64,000 bases of DNA from a virus (taxonomy: Duplodnaviria; Heunggongvirae; Uroviricota; Caudoviricetes). The notes under the pieces were generated by a model. That model saw only the letters and a list, made by a program, of their open reading frames with translations, made no database searches and was not told where the DNA came from. The stretch lies in the IMG/VR virus record IMGVR_UViG_3300033066_001253, positions 77,223-141,222 of that record; one strand, written 5' to 3'. This document shows, in pieces, positions 13,422 to 54,820 of this stretch (its first letter is position 1; each line of letters starts with the position of its first letter). The position numbers and the translations under genes are program-made.

Positions 13422-15997
13422 TGGCTATTTATAGTATTACTAATATAAAAATTTCTAAATTAGATGCTAATGGAAATGATAATACTTCTAATTTAGAACA
13501 ATTATTATATTTTACATTAAAATATTCTGATATTAATCCTATCCAATTTGATATAATCAATAGAAAAGAATATTCTGATTATTTCTTATTTAATATAAAA
13601 ACAACCCCTCTTCAACAATCATATGATATAAATACTTTAGCAAGCAGTTCAGATAATAATATAAAAAATTATTTTACATCTGCTTCTTTTCCATCAAATC
13701 AATCTTCTAGCATATTAAAATATGATACAATTTTAAATAATAATTTAGGTTATTTAAATACTTCTAGTGGTCAATTTATATTAGGAAACACTCCGAATAT
13801 TCCTTTAACTCTTATAGCAACAGCATCAATTTATTCAGTCAATGGAACTTTAGGAACTGAATTAAGAGTTTATACTAGAACATCAGATTCATCTAGTTTA
13901 AGAGGAGTTTCAGGATTTTCTTTTACTCAAGCTACTATTCCTCCATTAGGAAGTGCTACTTTATATGTATCAGGAAGTTTTACTCCAATAAAAGGAGAAA
14001 GATATGTAGTAGGAATATCTGATGATTCAGAATTTTCAGACATAACTGCATCTAATGTAAATTTTTTAATTACTCAATCTATTACACCAAATGTAGGAGT
14101 TAGTAGTTCAGGAGATTTATTAATTTTTATAACTCCAGGAGAAGATTCTGAAAACCCATTGTTAAATAATGCTGAAAACATATTATTAAATCCAAATTAT
14201 TTAACTTTAGATTATACAGAATATAAACTTCCTGATACTGAATTTCAATTAGTTTTATCTGGTTCTGGAACTAATTCATCTGTAAAACAATATAATTATG
14301 AAGCCAATAGAATAACAATTCCTAGATATAAAGGAAGCAGATCAACAAGCCCAGATTGGAATTTAAATAATACTGAGGGTGGTTTAGGTTTAGATCCTAA
14401 TGTTGAAAGAAATAATATATATTTTGCAGCTATAAATTCAATAGAAGAAGCCTCACCAGAAATAATAAATTCCAGTGTAGTTAATTTTAAATTTTTAATA
14501 GATGATCAAGGAAACACTTATGAATTAAATAATGATCCTTCTAATATTTCATATTATAATAGTACTTTTACTTTTGAAAAAGATAAACCAATAGTAATAT
14601 CAGATAATGAGGGAACTAATTATACTAGTTCAATTTATAGATCTGGATATGATGTTATTCCAATTTTATATTCTGATACAGGATTAACTTTTGAACCAAC
14701 ATTATCTTTTTCTAATAGTGGTGTAGGAAATTATTTATATAGAGCTTCAACACAAAATTGGATGTCAGCTAATTCTAATGTATTATTATTTTGGGGACCT
14801 AATTCTACACATGAATCAAATCAAGAAGGAAAAAGCTTCTTAATGAAATTCCCAACTATTTCTAAATCCCCAGATCTAACTTTAACTAATATACAAGTAT
14901 CAGCTAGTACTAATAATATTATTAATAATTTTTCTACTTATACCCCTCCAGGCTATCCTTCATATACACTAACTCCTATAATGACAGGAAGTTTATATCA
15001 TATAACTAATTCTACCCCTAATACTTATCTTAAATTTAAATATCAAGGCCAAGGAGATGCTACAGGTATAGCTGGGTTGTTTTATATAGGACCTTCTTAT
15101 AGTAAATGGCAATTAAATGTTAAATTTATAAAAGCTAAATTAACAGATTTAGGCGCTGTATCTCCTTCAGGAATATACACATGGAATTTTAATAACCTTT
15201 CAACTAATACTGAAATACTAGCTTCTACTACTTATATGGGTAATCTAGCTAATCCTTATTCATATAATGAGACAACAAACCCATTAATAACATATCCTAA
15301 CAAAGTAATTAATATTGATGGAGGAACTAATGGGTATATTACATTCCCTATAAATATAGAAACTAATTTTCTAGCCTTAGAAATAGATGATGTAATAGGT
15401 TTATTAGTAGAATTAGTTGATATTCCGACAGCCAAAACAATAGGTTTTTATAATAGTGCTAATTCTGGATATAATTTTTATTCAATGGAAACTATATCTG
15501 ATCCTCCACCAAACCTATTAATAACAACCTCTCCACAACCTTATTTTCAAACAGCCTCTTCCAATCCTTATAGATTAATAATGGCAACAGCTTCAATTAA
15601 CGCTAACCCGACATTAACTTCAGGTTTGGCTCAAGCATTTGAATATAAACAATTAGATATAACTGGATCCTTATATAAAAATATTACCAAAAAATCGTTA
15701 CCATTGGTAGGAGATCAAATAAGATTTGAACATAATGAATCTTTAATATATGATGTATTGGAAACTGGGTTTACTAGTTCTGGTAATTTTTATATGGATT
15801 TAAATAATCCTATATTAAATGGAACTAACTTGAATTGGTTTTTAATAAGAAGATATATTAAAAATCCATCAAAAATGATAATCACAACTCCATTTGAACA
15901 AACATCAGGATTTGCATTTCCTGAATATATGAGTAAAAACATAGTAAATAATTTACCGAAAATAATAGAAAAATTAAAAACACAAGGATTAATTTAA
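13421..15997 (+). CDS. Large virion structural protein
   Basis: 858 aa, S/T/N-rich, beta-type; in the baseplate operon. Confidence 0.55.
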   Translation: MAIYSITNIKISKLDANGNDNTSNLEQLLYFTLKYSDINPIQFDIINRKEYSDYFLFNIKTTPLQQSYDINTLASSSDNNIKNYFTSASFPSNQSSSILKYDTILNNNLGYLNTSSGQFILGNTPNIPLTLIATASIYSVNGTLGTELRVYTRTSDSSSLRGVSGFSFTQATIPPLGSATLYVSGSFTPIKGERYVVGISDDSEFSDITASNVNFLITQSITPNVGVSSSGDLLIFITPGEDSENPLLNNAENILLNPNYLTLDYTEYKLPDTEFQLVLSGSGTNSSVKQYNYEANRITIPRYKGSRSTSPDWNLNNTEGGLGLDPNVERNNIYFAAINSIEEASPEIINSSVVNFKFLIDDQGNTYELNNDPSNISYYNSTFTFEKDKPIVISDNEGTNYTSSIYRSGYDVIPILYSDTGLTFEPTLSFSNSGVGNYLYRASTQNWMSANSNVLLFWGPNSTHESNQEGKSFLMKFPTISKSPDLTLTNIQVSASTNNIINNFSTYTPPGYPSYTLTPIMTGSLYHITNSTPNTYLKFKYQGQGDATGIAGLFYIGPSYSKWQLNVKFIKAKLTDLGAVSPSGIYTWNFNNLSTNTEILASTTYMGNLANPYSYNETTNPLITYPNKVINIDGGTNGYITFPINIETNFLALEIDDVIGLLVELVDIPTAKTIGFYNSANSGYNFYSMETISDPPPNLLITTSPQPYFQTASSNPYRLIMATASINANPTLTSGLAQAFEYKQLDITGSLYKNITKKSLPLVGDQIRFEHNESLIYDVLETGFTSSGNFYMDLNNPILNGTNLNWFLIRRYIKNPSKMIITTPFEQTSGFAFPEYMSKNIVNNLPKIIEKLKTQGLI

Positions 15998-23653: not shown

Positions 23654-23686
23654 AGGCTTGGAGAAATTCAAGCCTTTTTGTATATT
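23654..23686 (+). terminator. Intrinsic terminator overlapping a sigma70-like promoter
   Basis: AGGCTTG-GAGAAATT-CAAGCCT followed by TTTT; TTGGAG (23658), 17 nt, TATATT (23681). Confidence 0.7.
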
Positions 23687-50445: not shown

Positions 50446-52089
50446 ATGAGTACAATCAATTCATTATTAGAAAGTGCCAACCCATATAAGTCATTGCAAA
50501 ATGATGCTGCTAGATTAGCAGGAAAATGGGTTAAAACAGGCCTATTGGAAGGTATGAGTACCGAAACCGATAAAAACAACATGTCAATGATTCTTGAGAA
50601 TCAGGCAAAACAATTAGTAGTTGAATCATCTCAAACAGGTGCAGGAACAGCAGGAGCTGCTTTTACAACTGGAGTAGGTGAACAATGGGCTGGTGTAGCT
50701 TTACCATTAGTACGTAAAGTATTTGGACAAATTGCAGCGAAAGAATTCGTTTCAGTTCAACCAATGAATTTACCTTCTGGTCTAATTTTCTACCTAGATT
50801 TCCAATATGGTACAACTAATTCTCCATTTGCTGCAGCTGGTGCTTCTGGTTTCTATGGAACTGAGTCATTATATGGTAACACAAATCCAGGTGCTACAAC
50901 AGCTGCAAATGGTGGTTTATATGGTGCAGGTCGTTTTAGTTATACTATTAACAACACTTCATCTATTGTAACTGCTACAGTAGCAACAGCTTCTTGGGCT
51001 AACTTTAATTTCGATTCTAATTATTCAGCTTCTGCTGCTTCATTACAATGGAAAACTTTAGCTGTAACTTTAGATGCTAAAGCAGATTTCAACGGATCTC
51101 GTGCATTTACATTAGTATCTCAATCAGCTCTTGGTTTAAATGCTGCTGATATCCAAGCTGCTTATACAACTTTCGCTGGAACTACTGTTACTTTCTTAGT
51201 TACTGGTTCTAAAGTAGGTCAAGTTGCAACTTTAGCTAACGTAACAGCTTCATTCCAATTACAACCAACTGATCAATTACGTGGTGATTTTGAAGATGGA
51301 AACACTTCATTAAACAGTTTAAACAACCCAATCGCTATCCCTGAAATCAACATTAAGTTGAAATCTGAAGCAATCGTTGCTAAAACACGTAAGTTGAAAG
51401 CTGTTTGGACTCCTGAGTTCTCTCAAGATTTAAATGCTTACCATGCTTTAGATGCTGAAGCTGAATTAACTTCTATTATGTCTGAATATATCTCTTTAGA
51501 GATTGACTTAGAAATTATGGATATGTTGATCGCAAACGCTTCTGCAGTTACTGAATATTGGTCAGCAGTTAATAACCAAGCATTGGATTCAACAGGTATC
51601 ACAAATAGTAACTTAGGTTTCTATAACACTCAAGGTGGTTGGTATCAAACATTAGGTACTAAGATTAACAAAGTATCTAATATTATTCACCAAAAAACAC
51701 TTCGTGGTGGTGCTACTTTCTTAGTATGTTCTCCTACAGTAGCAACAATCCTAGAATCAATCCCAGGATTTGCAGCTGATAATAGTGCAGAAGCTACTAA
51801 AATGAAGTATGCATTTGGTGTACAAAAAGTAGGTCAAATGAATGGACGTTACCAAGTATACAAAAATCCATACATGACTGAAAACACAATCCTATTAGGA
51901 TTCCGTGGATCTCAATTCTTGGAAACAGGTGCTGTATTTGCTCCATATGTTCCATTAATCATGACTCCATTAGTTTATGATCCAGATACATTCACTCCAC
52001 GTAAAGGTTTATTGACTCGTTACGCGAAGAAAATGGTAAGGTCAGAATTTTATGGAAAGATTTATGTAAGCGGTTTAAATACTCTTTAA
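50446..52089 (+). CDS. gp23: Major capsid protein (T4 gp23-like)
   Basis: VSVQPMNLPSGLIFYLD, AKTRKLKAVWTPEFSQDLNAYH, EIDLEI, YAPY-like FAPYVPL, GLLTRYA. Confidence 0.97.
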   Translation: MSTINSLLESANPYKSLQNDAARLAGKWVKTGLLEGMSTETDKNNMSMILENQAKQLVVESSQTGAGTAGAAFTTGVGEQWAGVALPLVRKVFGQIAAKEFVSVQPMNLPSGLIFYLDFQYGTTNSPFAAAGASGFYGTESLYGNTNPGATTAANGGLYGAGRFSYTINNTSSIVTATVATASWANFNFDSNYSASAASLQWKTLAVTLDAKADFNGSRAFTLVSQSALGLNAADIQAAYTTFAGTTVTFLVTGSKVGQVATLANVTASFQLQPTDQLRGDFEDGNTSLNSLNNPIAIPEINIKLKSEAIVAKTRKLKAVWTPEFSQDLNAYHALDAEAELTSIMSEYISLEIDLEIMDMLIANASAVTEYWSAVNNQALDSTGITNSNLGFYNTQGGWYQTLGTKINKVSNIIHQKTLRGGATFLVCSPTVATILESIPGFAADNSAEATKMKYAFGVQKVGQMNGRYQVYKNPYMTENTILLGFRGSQFLETGAVFAPYVPLIMTPLVYDPDTFTPRKGLLTRYAKKMVRSEFYGKIYVSGLNTL

Positions 52090-52113
52090 TAAATAACCTT
52101 TAATTAAATTGAG

Positions 52114-52144
52114 AACCCAACAGAAATGTTGGGTTTTCTTTTTC
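52114..52144 (+). terminator. Intrinsic terminator after MCP
   Basis: AACCCAACA-GAAA-TGTTGGGTT followed by a T-rich tail. Confidence 0.85.
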
Positions 52145-52166: not shown

Positions 52167-52195
52167 GTGGATAAATAGTATACTCTACTTATATT
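52167..52195 (+). promoter_or_regulatory. Sigma70-like promoter variant for the pentein/PSD cassette
   Basis: GTGGAT, 17 nt, TATATT; overlaps an ATATTTATA motif. Confidence 0.45.
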
Positions 52196-52221
52196 TATAT
52201 TATATTAATTATTAACGACAA

Positions 52222-53139
52222 ATGATAAAAGAAACACCTTCACAACTCAACATACCAAGTTATGTAATGAATTTTCCATTTAGCTTATCTGCTAAAGAAC
52301 CAAACAATATTTGGATGGAAGAACTTAAACCTGAAGAATTAGAAATTAATCGTCCTAAAGCATATAAACAGTTTATGGATTTATATAATTTTATAGCTGG
52401 TCAAGGATTAGTTTATTTATTACCTAGTAAAGGTGATTTTCAAGATCAAGTATATGTTGCTAATTTAGGTTTACATTTACCTCATATTAAAGATCGTAAT
52501 GTAATGTTATTATCTAATTATACCTCAGAACCAAGACGTGGAGAAGAATGGGTTGGTAAGGAATTTTTTGATATGATGGGTTATGAAACATTTGTATGTC
52601 CATTTAAATGGGAAGGTGAAGCAGATCTTAAATATCTAAAAGATAACATTTATATTGGAGGGTATGGACAACGTTCAACTTTAGAAGCATATGAATGGAT
52701 GGAAAAACAATTTGATATGAAAATTATTAAATTAGAAATGATTGAACCTTATTTATATCATTTAGATTGTTCAGTATTTCCGTTAACAAGTGATTCAACT
52801 ATGATTTGCACGTCCTTATATGAACCATCCGAAATAGCTGAGTTAAAACGCTATACTAAAATTATAGACATAAGTGAAGATGATGCCTTTGGAGGTATTA
52901 CTAACTCTGTAAGATTGGGTAATATGATTTTATGTGCTTCAAACATTTCTGAATTGAAAAAAGGAGAAGAATTATATGATTTAGAAAAACATAAAATTAA
53001 TACTTTAGAGAAAATTTGCGGAGGTGAGGGAATGGAATGTGCTATATTTAATCTTTCAGAATTCATGAAAAGTGGTGCTCTTCTCTCTTGTATGATACAA
53101 ATGTTAAATCGCGTAGATATCCAGAAAAAATTAATTTAA
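52222..53139 (+). CDS. Pentein-superfamily amidino hydrolase (arginine dihydrolase/DDAH-like)
   Basis: QDQVYVANLG, RRGEE, WEGEAD, GYGQRS, YHLDC, SEFMKSGALLSC; Asp-His-Cys residues present. Confidence 0.85.
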   Translation: MIKETPSQLNIPSYVMNFPFSLSAKEPNNIWMEELKPEELEINRPKAYKQFMDLYNFIAGQGLVYLLPSKGDFQDQVYVANLGLHLPHIKDRNVMLLSNYTSEPRRGEEWVGKEFFDMMGYETFVCPFKWEGEADLKYLKDNIYIGGYGQRSTLEAYEWMEKQFDMKIIKLEMIEPYLYHLDCSVFPLTSDSTMICTSLYEPSEIAELKRYTKIIDISEDDAFGGITNSVRLGNMILCASNISELKKGEELYDLEKHKINTLEKICGGEGMECAIFNLSEFMKSGALLSCMIQMLNRVDIQKKLI

Positions 53140-53270
53140 TGAAAAATAAAGTTATAGATACTTGGAATAAAGATAAAATAGTTTATGAGGGGACTTATGA
53201 ACAATGTTTAAATTATATTAGAGGTAATAACATTTATCAAAGTAATTATTCCAAATTAAAATTATTATGA
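53139..53270 (+). CDS. 43-aa hypothetical protein
   Basis: MKNKVIDTWNKDKIVYEGTYEQCLNYIRG...; TAATG and ATGA couplings to both neighbours. Confidence 0.55.
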   Translation: MKNKVIDTWNKDKIVYEGTYEQCLNYIRGNNIYQSNYSKLKLL

Positions 53271-53986
53271 GCAAACCCCTAGAACAATGGATTAAAGAAG
53301 ACATTTCAAAATGTAAGAAAATGAATCTTACAAAATTATCAACTGAATTTTTCTTTAGAGATCCTCAACGTCCCAATTATATTGATAACGAACATTTCTA
53401 CTCACCTTGTGATGGGACTATAATGTATCAAAAATATATAACTGATACAAAAGATAAAGTAGTTGAAATAAAAGGTATAAATTATACATTACAAGATGTT
53501 ATAGGAGATAAAACATATAATAAACCTTCACTTGTTATAGGCGTTTTTTTATCGTTTTATGATCCTCATATAATCCGCATACCTTATGGTGGAGTAGTGC
53601 GTTATAGACAGTTAGAACCGATTGAAAGCACTAATAGACCTATGCTCGCGGTTGAAAAAGATTTATTAAATCAAGCAATTAATCCTGATAATATGGATTA
53701 TCTAAAGTATAATGAAAGGATGTTAGTTGAAGTTTACTCACCATCTTTAGATTATACTTATTATGTTACTTTAATTGCTGATGAAGATGTAAATGTAATT
53801 TGTCCATTTACCTTAAATCAAAATGAATTATTTTCACAGAATCAGAGGTTTGCATTAGTTCGCTGGGGCTCACAATCAGAGTTGATATTACCTTTTGATG
53901 AAAGATATGATTTTGAATTATGTCAAGAAGATACGTGGCATATTGAAGCTGGTTTAGATAAATTAGTAAAAATAAAATATAATTAA
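53267..53986 (+). CDS. Phosphatidylserine decarboxylase-family pyruvoyl enzyme, no obvious membrane anchor
   Basis: FFRDP.R, SPCDG, FLSFYDPHIIRIP, ER, RFALVRWGSQ; D-H-S self-cleavage triad. Confidence 0.8.
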   Translation: MSKPLEQWIKEDISKCKKMNLTKLSTEFFFRDPQRPNYIDNEHFYSPCDGTIMYQKYITDTKDKVVEIKGINYTLQDVIGDKTYNKPSLVIGVFLSFYDPHIIRIPYGGVVRYRQLEPIESTNRPMLAVEKDLLNQAINPDNMDYLKYNERMLVEVYSPSLDYTYYVTLIADEDVNVICPFTLNQNELFSQNQRFALVRWGSQSELILPFDERYDFELCQEDTWHIEAGLDKLVKIKYN

Positions 53987-54006: not shown

Positions 54007-54696
54007 ATGTCTCAACCAAATAATGAAGAAGTTTTTGCTAATAAGAAAAAACCTAAAGGAGAAATCCGATTTAAATTAGAATTTGCAGAAGATCAGAAAA
54101 ACGCTAAGAAAGCAATTTTAGGAAGTCCTGTAGCAGTTATTGATGGTAAAGCTGGTAGTGGTAAAACAACATTAGCCTCCCAAATAGCCTTAGATTTATT
54201 ATTTAAAAAAGAAATAGAAAAAATAATTATTGCTCGTCCATTTGTTACAGCTGGAGAAGATATTGGTTATCTTCCAGGTGGAGTTGATCAAAAATTAGAA
54301 TATCTTACTTATCCTATTTATGATATTATGAATTCATTGATAGGTAATACTGAGAAAGTAGAAAAAATGATCAAAGAAAATCAAATTAAGGTAATTCCTA
54401 TTGGTTTTCTTAGAGGTCATACTTTTAATGATAGTTTAATTATAATTGATGAAGCTCAAAACTGTACTAAAAAACAAACTGAATTAATATTAGGAAGATT
54501 AGGAACTACTTCAAAACTTTTATTTTGTGGAGATGTAACTCAATGTGATTTAAAATCACCATTAGATTCAGGTATGCGTTTATTACTAGATTTATCTAAG
54601 AATGTAAAGAGAGTTTCTTATGTTAAATTAACTCAAAATCATAGACATGAGGTTGTAGATGAAATTTTAGAGTATATTAAAATTAATAGTCTTTAA
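54007..54696 (+). CDS. phoH: PhoH-family ATPase
   Basis: GKAGSGKT, ARPFV, GYLPG, FLRGHTF, IIDEAQN, RLG, GDVTQCD, NHRH. Confidence 0.92.
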   Translation: MSQPNNEEVFANKKKPKGEIRFKLEFAEDQKNAKKAILGSPVAVIDGKAGSGKTTLASQIALDLLFKKEIEKIIIARPFVTAGEDIGYLPGGVDQKLEYLTYPIYDIMNSLIGNTEKVEKMIKENQIKVIPIGFLRGHTFNDSLIIIDEAQNCTKKQTELILGRLGTTSKLLFCGDVTQCDLKSPLDSGMRLLLDLSKNVKRVSYVKLTQNHRHEVVDEILEYIKINSL

Positions 54697-54794: not shown

Positions 54795-54820
54795 AAACCA
54801 CTCCCACGAGTGGTTTTTTT
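54795..54820 (+). terminator. Intrinsic terminator
   Basis: AAACCACTC-CCAC-GAGTGGTTT followed by TTTT. Confidence 0.85.

Follow-up and report, generated by a model that had tools for sequence, protein, structure and literature searches.

The polyamine enzymes described from phages include pyridoxal phosphate (PLP)-dependent ornithine decarboxylase (ODC), AdoMetDC-fold pyruvoyl ODC and arginine decarboxylase (ADC), arginase, and the spermidine and homospermidine synthases (PMC9992855; Li et al. 2023 PNAS). Outside phages, the fold of phosphatidylserine decarboxylase (PSD) is found in Ao-ADC1 of the fungus Aspergillus oryzae (PDB 9JER/9JF5), which decarboxylates arginine but shows no activity as a PSD (PMC12904898), while in Escherichia coli PSD itself three N-terminal amphipathic helices are required for membrane binding and maturation (PMC7952604). 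In this study, we analyzed a gene pair from a T4-like virus that encodes a pentein and a PSD-family protein (here called PSD-like). The window, that is, the whole stretch of DNA analyzed, is 64,000 nucleotides long and covers positions 77,223 to 141,222 of IMG/VR record IMGVR_UViG_3300033066_001253, a 147.9-kb T4-like viral genome that is about 90% complete and has a GC content of about 27%. The pentein resembles the arginine dihydrolases ArgZ and AgrE, the PSD-like protein keeps its self-processing residues and has no N-terminal anchor, and the two genes are linked in phages and in bacteria. Whether the pair converts arginine to ornithine and ornithine to putrescine, made late in infection, is in our view an even call.

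Family, fold and residues of the two proteins

Several lines of comparison place the pentein with ArgZ/AgrE, as an earlier note made from the letters of this DNA had proposed. In sequence searches of the PDB, ArgZ/AgrE were the sole matches (phmmer 4.5e-17; clade profile 1e-18), and the top NCBIfam match was arginine dihydrolase (1e-22), while Pfam returned a weak match to DDAH_eukar (5.5e-9). The AlphaFold (AF2) model (pLDDT 80) retrieved penteins in all of its top 50 Foldseek matches, with ArgZ/AgrE the best (1e-15, TM 0.81) and with DDAH (3e-9), SxtG/AGAT (2.5e-8 or weaker), AstB and, at 4e-7, the agmatine deiminase of Campylobacter jejuni behind them. Amidinotransferases (AGAT, SxtG, StrB) were undetected in the PDB sequence searches, and in Pfam the agmatine deiminase family PF04371 gave no match at E ≤ 1. 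The protein is a single domain of 305 residues and does not have the C-terminal ornithine cyclodeaminase-like domain. Because it stands alone and falls under the equivalog cut-offs, it is best described on these comparisons as ArgZ-like but a separate subfamily, not an ArgZ equivalog.

The open reading frame coordinates and every motif quoted in the earlier note were recovered in the translations, the pentein motifs being DQVYVAN (75-81), WEGEAD (130-135), GYGQRS (147-152), YHLDC (179-183) and SEFMKSGALLSC (279-290). In hDDAH1, Asp73 binds the α-amino group of the substrate, Arg145, with Arg98 nearby, binds the α-carboxylate, Asp79 is the guanidine clamp, and His173 and Cys274 serve catalysis (PMC10958460). 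By motif and spacing, the equivalents in the pentein are D75 (for D73), R105 (R98), R151 (R145), N81 (Asp79), H180 (H173) and C290 (C274); none of these six residues varies among 32 homologues from phages or among 15 from phages and cells. Alignment pairs C290 with the catalytic C264 of ArgZ, gives C290, H180 and E131 as the catalytic set, with E131 and D182 also invariant, and pairs N81 with ArgZ N71, the residue mutated in an intermediate-trapping structure (N71S, PDB 6juz). The guanidine-clamp position of the pentein is therefore occupied by an ArgZ-type Asn and not by the Asp of DDAH and the deiminases. Amidinotransferases probably also carry Asp there. With residue roles drawn in this way from PDB entry titles, alignments and the DDAH review, the pattern fits a free α-amino acid as substrate; since the binders of the α-amino and α-carboxylate groups are retained, the pentein would act before decarboxylation.

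The PSD-like protein matches PS_Dcarbxylase (PF02666) at 3.3e-20, with 73 bits against a gathering cut-off of 22, and its model has a pLDDT of 80. When this model was compared with pyruvoyl enzymes, E. coli PSD (Z 11.5) ranked above the fungal enzyme PsiD (8.5) and Ao-ADC1 (7.9); the latter two share 10-13% identity with it structurally and were not detected by sequence search. As the earlier note had stated, the D-H-S set and the GS cleavage site are kept: D49, D99-x-H101 and G201-S202, which correspond to D90, D142-x-H144 and G253-S254 of the E. coli enzyme, are intact and invariant in the clade, the FFRDP motif is retained, and the cleavage motif reads [W/Y/F]GSQ.

The protein differs from true PSDs in features tied to lipid binding. 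The missing anchor claimed in the earlier note was confirmed, in that the maximum 19-residue Kyte-Doolittle value of the N-terminus is -0.22 (clade range -0.1 to -1.0), compared with +1.75 to +2.2 for canonical short PSDs and 0.58 for E. coli PSD by the same measure, and the alignment begins at about residue 44 of the E. coli protein. The acyl pockets of E. coli PSD are formed by V37, F41, F63, F67 and L252 and by L13, L18 and T204, and its phosphate and carboxylate contacts are Y137, H144 and S166 (PMC7952604). V37, F41 and L13 are without equivalent in the PSD-like protein, F63 is replaced by S25, and the acyl-chain contact T204 is replaced by E173, which lies in a clade-specific acidic strand, D172-[E/Y]-D174 (D172-E173-D174 in the window), where canonical short PSDs have a basic ARR. 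S166 falls in a clade-specific insert (about residues 115-135, some 15-20 residues) that is rich in invariant residues. We also considered the replacement of Y137 by Phe (F94) as a loss of phosphate binding and rejected it, as canonical short PSDs have Phe there too. The clade is narrow: its profile matched 1,339 of 1.8 billion representative proteins, with nearly all top matches aligning from residue 1, and a long branch with 100/100 support separates it from the canonical PSDs.

A few members of the clade carry additional sequence. In two metagenomic relatives, P0244 (737 residues) and P0383 (476 residues), an intein with a LAGLIDADG endonuclease splits D99 from H101, with the junction …SFFD/C…HN/CHINRVPY. 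Inteins favor such key sites in important enzymes. In most Fletchervirus genomes the PSD-like gene is overlapped at its 3′ end by a gene for a Hef-type homing endonuclease (in NCTC12673, L011:5731-7185). Both suggest that the gene is a target of mobile elements. In P0249 (390 residues) the gene call joins the PSD-like domain to an Acb1 anti-CBASS phosphodiesterase domain, and in P0246 (1114 residues) to a VapB-like domain and an ADP-ribosyltransferase exoenzyme domain; these are possible fusions or read-through gene calls. No fusion to the pentein was found among the long PSD-like proteins, which had inteins or the possible Acb1 and ADP-ribosyltransferase joins instead.

Linkage of the two genes in phages and bacteria

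Homologues of both proteins number hundreds to thousands in metagenomes, on T4-like contigs of up to 180 kb, and the conserved gene order is portal, prohead protease, scaffold, Gp23, pentein, PSD-like and PhoH. Both genes were present in 77 of 80 IMG/VR loci seeded with the decarboxylase and in 73 of 80 seeded with the pentein, always in the order pentein to decarboxylase and with a median gap of 3 nt; nearly all loci without both were cut by the contig end. PhoH lies 3′ of the pair in more than 90% of the related viral loci. As these IMG/VR loci represent one lineage, independent evidence of linkage was taken from cultured phages, cellular genomes and exporters.

Among cultured phages, some 40 genomes of Campylobacter Fletchervirus contain the two genes in different modules separated by about 40 kb, and in six Bacteroides DAC/SJC phages the two are adjacent. 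Profile searches of complete genomes found both in NCTC12673 and DAC23 and neither in CP220 of the sister genus Firehammervirus. The pairing may be broken in one Xanthomonas phage record, in which a homologue of the pentein but no PSD-like gene passed the threshold used. In the trees, very long branches lead to the copies from Campylobacter and Bacteroides phages. Cellular copies from Sulfurimonas (Campylobacterota) form a group with the Fletchervirus copy in the tree of the PSD-like proteins (support 100/81). This may point to a gene taken from the host phylum, but the branch in question is very long and the placement is not confirmed by the pentein tree.

A scan of one genome per prokaryotic species showed that the phage-type decarboxylase also occurs, at full length and with 36-48% identity, in cellular genomes. 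The carriers include seven Xenorhabdus species; Sedimenticola and other Gammaproteobacteria; Saccharopolyspora, Saccharothrix, Allokutzneria, Kutzneria and others among the Actinomycetota; Verrucomicrobiales; Sulfurimonas and other Campylobacterota; Gemmatimonadota; and Latescibacterota. Of the 35 loci whose flanking sequence was long enough, 34 have an ArgZ-like pentein (47-56% identity) immediately 3′ of the decarboxylase, so that the cellular order is the reverse of the phage order. The earlier note had named a lack of co-occurrence elsewhere as a refutation, and this was decisively contradicted: the genes occur together both among phages and across at least six bacterial phyla. The remaining locus, on an 8.1-kb contig of an Actinomycetota metagenome-assembled genome (MAG), has a PSD-like gene without a detectable pentein nearby. 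For the cellular sequences, the trees of the two genes agree broadly.

The next gene encodes an exporter in 31 of 34 cellular loci (20 MATE proteins and 11 ABC half-transporters), and the Saccharothrix locus has another ABC system beyond these 31. MATE and ABC transporters are unrelated families in the same slot, which argues for a small, soluble product that would be made by the bacterial module and exported. No other conserved neighbor was found at the cellular modules, where aldehyde dehydrogenase, GntR, SnoaL, cholesterol oxidase, primase, FGE-sulfatase, sigma factor, ketosynthase and two-component system genes come and go, and PhoH was not found beside the pair there, its adjacency being confined to phages. 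In four of five module-bearing genomes a separate canonical PSD scores 154-206 bits, compared with 87-107 bits for the module copy, and by this measure the module decarboxylase is shown to be a paralogue of the housekeeping PSD.

The actinomycete Allokutzneria oryzae (G005) has three module-type PSD-like copies (83-90 bits) and one canonical PSD (156 bits), at L020, L225, L227 and a fourth place. In a Pseudomonadota MAG (L039:8080-10415) the module and an ABC exporter are followed by a PLP-dependent decarboxylase of the LysA/ODC fold and by a 372-residue protein without family match; we considered this decarboxylase as a clue to the function of the module and set it aside, as it is LysA-like and uninformative.

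The proposed reactions and their alternatives

In the route that we favor, the pentein would hydrolyze the guanidino group of arginine through a thiouronium intermediate on Cys290 (Arg + 2 H2O → ornithine + 2 NH3 + CO2). The PSD-fold protein would cleave itself between G201 and S202 to generate its pyruvoyl cofactor and, as a soluble enzyme, would decarboxylate ornithine to putrescine, with the acidic D-x-D strand holding the cationic side chain (the δ-ammonium) where true PSDs hold lipid. A dihydrolase and a decarboxylase yield putrescine in either order; the order arginine, ornithine, putrescine is favored because the pentein keeps the binders of the α-carboxylate and the α-amino group. The phages appear to have captured only the two enzymes, without the exporter, and would express them from the terminator-bounded unit behind the capsid gene, so that the product would accumulate in the infected cell, probably late. 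Judging from what is generally known of polyamines, its most economical role would be that of a counter-ion for replicating and packaged DNA. Polyamines occur in T-even heads and in in-vitro packaging. Campylobacter and Bacteroides make putrescine by a three-step agmatine route, and a two-step bypass would add putrescine flux in those hosts.

Several observations weigh against this route. The pentein scores 80.6 bits where the NCBIfam arginine dihydrolase equivalog has a cut-off of 450 (a second equivalog comparison gave 76.8 bits against 1025), and the best NCBIfam score of the PSD-like protein is 56.5 bits against a PSD equivalog cut-off of 183. Structurally, the latter is nearer to E. coli PSD than to the amino-acid decarboxylases PsiD and Ao-ADC1, and its substrate is not readable from sequence; the map of substrate-binding residues in the pentein comes from alignments and spacing, not from a liganded structure. 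The polyamine genes speD, spermidine synthase and N-carbamoylputrescine amidohydrolase (NCPAH, a CN-hydrolase) were not found in the phage, although their absence by itself counts neither for nor against the route. The late-promoter assignment is weak, with a motif count in the window not above chance, and a housekeeping polyamine would not be expected to come with an exporter of its own, so that the bacterial product may be other than putrescine.

The two enzymes could also work in the opposite order, with the PSD-fold protein converting arginine to agmatine and the pentein acting as an agmatine dihydrolase that yields putrescine, or as a deiminase that yields N-carbamoylputrescine for a host NCPAH. 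This order agrees with Ao-ADC1, a PSD-fold pyruvoyl arginine decarboxylase, with the leading position of the decarboxylase gene in the cellular modules, and with the use of the agmatine route by the likely hosts. We nevertheless consider it rather improbable, as the invariant R105, R151 and D75 are kept and agmatine would not need carboxylate binders, the pentein is nearer to ArgZ than to agmatine deiminase in Foldseek and has no PF04371 match, and the phage has no detected NCPAH. Thus, of the two-step route from arginine to polyamine put forward in the earlier note, the ArgZ-like fold, the anchor-less PSD fold and the co-occurrence stood up to the computational tests, and the agmatine-first variant lost ground. 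Another explanation, unlikely in our judgment, is that the module makes a different secreted small cation, such as a guanidino compound formed by amidino transfer onto an amine made by the decarboxylase, or an amine derived from homoarginine, canavanine or a methylarginine. It would account for the exporter, of one of two unrelated families, that accompanies the pair at 31-32 of 34 cellular loci, for carriers rich in secondary metabolites (Xenorhabdus, Pseudonocardiaceae), for the GenBank label of the pentein as an amidinotransferase, and for scores far under the equivalog cut-offs in both proteins. However, the clamp position holds the ArgZ-type Asn and not the DDAH Asp, SxtG and AGAT are farther away in Foldseek and undetected by sequence, and besides the exporter no tailoring enzyme is conserved near the pair. 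On the phage side, the metabolite would then manipulate host physiology or defense rather than supply polyamine. In the same vein, but again with a probability well short of even, the three-gene module of bacteria might make and secrete an arginine-derived small cation other than a housekeeping polyamine, acting for example as a signal, allelochemical or stress metabolite. Phages, having taken the two biosynthetic genes and left the exporter, would fill the cell with it for ends other than neutralizing the charge of DNA, such as host takeover, nitrogen release, pH control or counter-defense.

That the PSD-like protein is a genuine PSD, with which the phage remodels phosphatidylethanolamine or ornithine lipids under phosphate stress while the pentein is unrelated, is suggested by its nearest Pfam and PDB relatives, which are bacterial PSDs, by the retained FFRDP, D-x-H and G-S motifs, by the adjoining PhoH, and by the GenBank and JGI annotation. 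We hold it to be very improbable, because the protein is without the membrane-binding N-terminus that E. coli PSD requires, has the acidic D-x-D at a lipid-contact position, belongs to a narrow clade on a very long, fully supported branch, and its gene is associated with one for an arginine-dihydrolase-like protein and with those for MATE or ABC exporters. In addition, pssA was not found in the phage, and most of the module-bearing genomes keep their own canonical PSD; lipid remodeling, which the earlier note had offered as its alternative, is accordingly disfavored. The same note had suggested DNA modification. Here the pair would feed DNA hypermodification, for example to putrescinyl-thymine as in phage phiW-14, or would modify protein or the capsid. 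The genes do sit in a head-gene cluster, and Crippen et al. are said to have found in 2019 that dG is replaced by dI in Fletchervirus DNA. But neither a ThyA-family hydroxymethylase nor ThyX was found in this phage, which is about 90% complete, the same module stands beside exporters in many bacteria, which fits a free small molecule, and the pentein keeps its binders for a free α-amino acid. The suggestion was therefore not borne out, and its probability is very low.

Transcription unit, novelty and comparison with known systems

Four co-oriented genes, for the pentein, a 43-residue open reading frame (ORF), the PSD-like protein and PhoH, lie between two terminators (Table 1).

Table 1. Features of the pentein/PSD-like locus (positions in the window)
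Feature	Position	Strand	Remark
Gp23-type major capsid gene	50446-52089		just 5′ of the cassette
Intrinsic terminator behind the major capsid gene	52111-52138	+	12-bp stem, 4-nt loop, T-run
TATATTTATA motif, candidate phage late-type promoter element	52190-52199	+	about 31 nt 5′ of the pentein ATG
Pentein, stand-alone, ArgZ/AgrE-like, predicted arginine dihydrolase, 305 aa	52222-53139	+	
43-aa ORF between the two enzyme genes	53139-53270	+	ATG at 53139; lineage-specific insertion
PSD-family pyruvoyl proenzyme, predicted soluble ornithine or basic-amino-acid decarboxylase, 239 aa	53267-53986	+	
PhoH-like ATPase	54007-54696	+	neighbor in the same terminator-bounded unit
Intrinsic terminator closing the pentein-to-PhoH unit	54795-54816	+	

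The terminator that the earlier note had placed behind the capsid gene is present, and an equivalent GC stem with T-run also lies 5′ of the cassette in relatives. The coupled three-gene unit of that note stood in part. Its genes are translationally coupled (TAATG at 53137-53141, ATGA at 53267-53270), but the middle ORF was seen in only 1 of 77 related loci and the next terminator comes only after phoH. This small ORF had no match in Pfam or NCBIfam and is missing from relatives L002-L008; where it is absent, the two enzyme genes overlap directly. The conserved unit is two genes, to which a lineage-specific small ORF has been added.

An own promoter for the cassette, also claimed in the earlier note, is plausible. 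A TAT(T/G)TATA element about 31 nt 5′ of the pentein ATG is conserved among relatives, in 90 of 102 unique upstream sequences, and TATAT(T/G)TATA may be the late-type promoter of this phage group; in the window, however, its nine copies against 5.2 expected are not a significant enrichment. Eight of the nine are on the + (coding) strand, at 2913, 18718, 23681, 30279, 35757, 40581, 44778 and 52190, and one, at 15349, is on the - strand. At least one copy, that at 23681, is directly 5′ of a gene start marked in the earlier note.

Our literature search found no description of the pair, or of a PSD-fold route for ornithine or arginine in phages and bacteria. One paper names a phosphatidylserine decarboxylase and an amidinotransferase in phage, with psd and GATM as unrelated auxiliary genes, and current database labels of the pair are phosphatidylserine decarboxylase, DDAH and amidinotransferase. 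New here are the pair as a conserved module well beyond phage, linked to exporters in at least six bacterial phyla, the paralogy to housekeeping PSD, the acidic-strand swap, the joint absence from Firehammervirus and the intein within D-x-H. There is perhaps an even chance that the pair gives phages an auxiliary polyamine pathway whose enzyme families had not been connected with polyamines in phages before. If so, it would be an undescribed two-enzyme route from arginine to putrescine beside ADC/agmatinase, ADC/agmatine iminohydrolase (AIH)/NCPAH and arginase/ODC, with the first bacterial or viral PSD-fold pyruvoyl enzyme that acts on a free amino acid. It would also extend the polyamine auxiliary genes by a new class, one found very commonly among T4-like phages of aquatic habitats. 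Thousands of entries labeled as PSD, DDAH or amidinotransferase would then need re-annotation, and the counts of psd in surveys of viral auxiliary genes a second look. The presence of the pair in cultured Campylobacter and Bacteroides phages makes these proposals directly testable, and the exporter-linked bacterial module is an uncharacterized, widespread small-molecule system in its own right.

Among solved structures, the cyanobacterial ArgZ (Sll1336) and AgrE (Alr4995) are the closest relatives of the pentein (E of about 1e-17 to 1e-18, TM 0.81). They have in common with it the Cys-His-acid set, the Asn at N71, and two Arg and one Asp that hold the amino-acid end. The identity is about 24-30%, and a helix of about 25 residues (245-270) is inserted in the pentein. 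In ArgZ/AgrE a C-terminal cyclodeaminase-like domain follows, and the enzyme belongs to the ornithine-ammonia cycle, whereas the phage-type pentein stands alone and is paired with a PSD-fold decarboxylase.

For that decarboxylase, E. coli Psd (PDB 6L06/7CNW) offers the same fold and the same FFRDP, D-x-H and G-S motifs, from which we infer that the PSD-like protein presumably has a pyruvoyl cofactor as well. In contrast to E. coli Psd, it lacks membrane-binding helices at the N-terminus as well as a transmembrane segment, has the D-x-D strand in place of ARR or neutral residues, has the insert, and is linked to exporters in bacteria. A functional precedent for free amino acids is given by Ao-ADC1 together with PsiD (PDB 8X4Q), a PSD-fold tryptophan decarboxylase, but these fungal enzymes are about twice as long as the PSD-like protein and have a helical N-terminal region. 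Since the PSD-like protein is farther from them than from E. coli PSD, any shift to amino acids would have been independent. With regard to phages, the survey in PMC9992855 makes no mention of phosphatidylserine, dihydrolase, Campylobacter or Bacteroides. The idea is nonetheless the same in both cases, namely that phages carry auxiliary enzymes for putrescine and spermidine, pyruvoyl enzymes with switched substrates among them.

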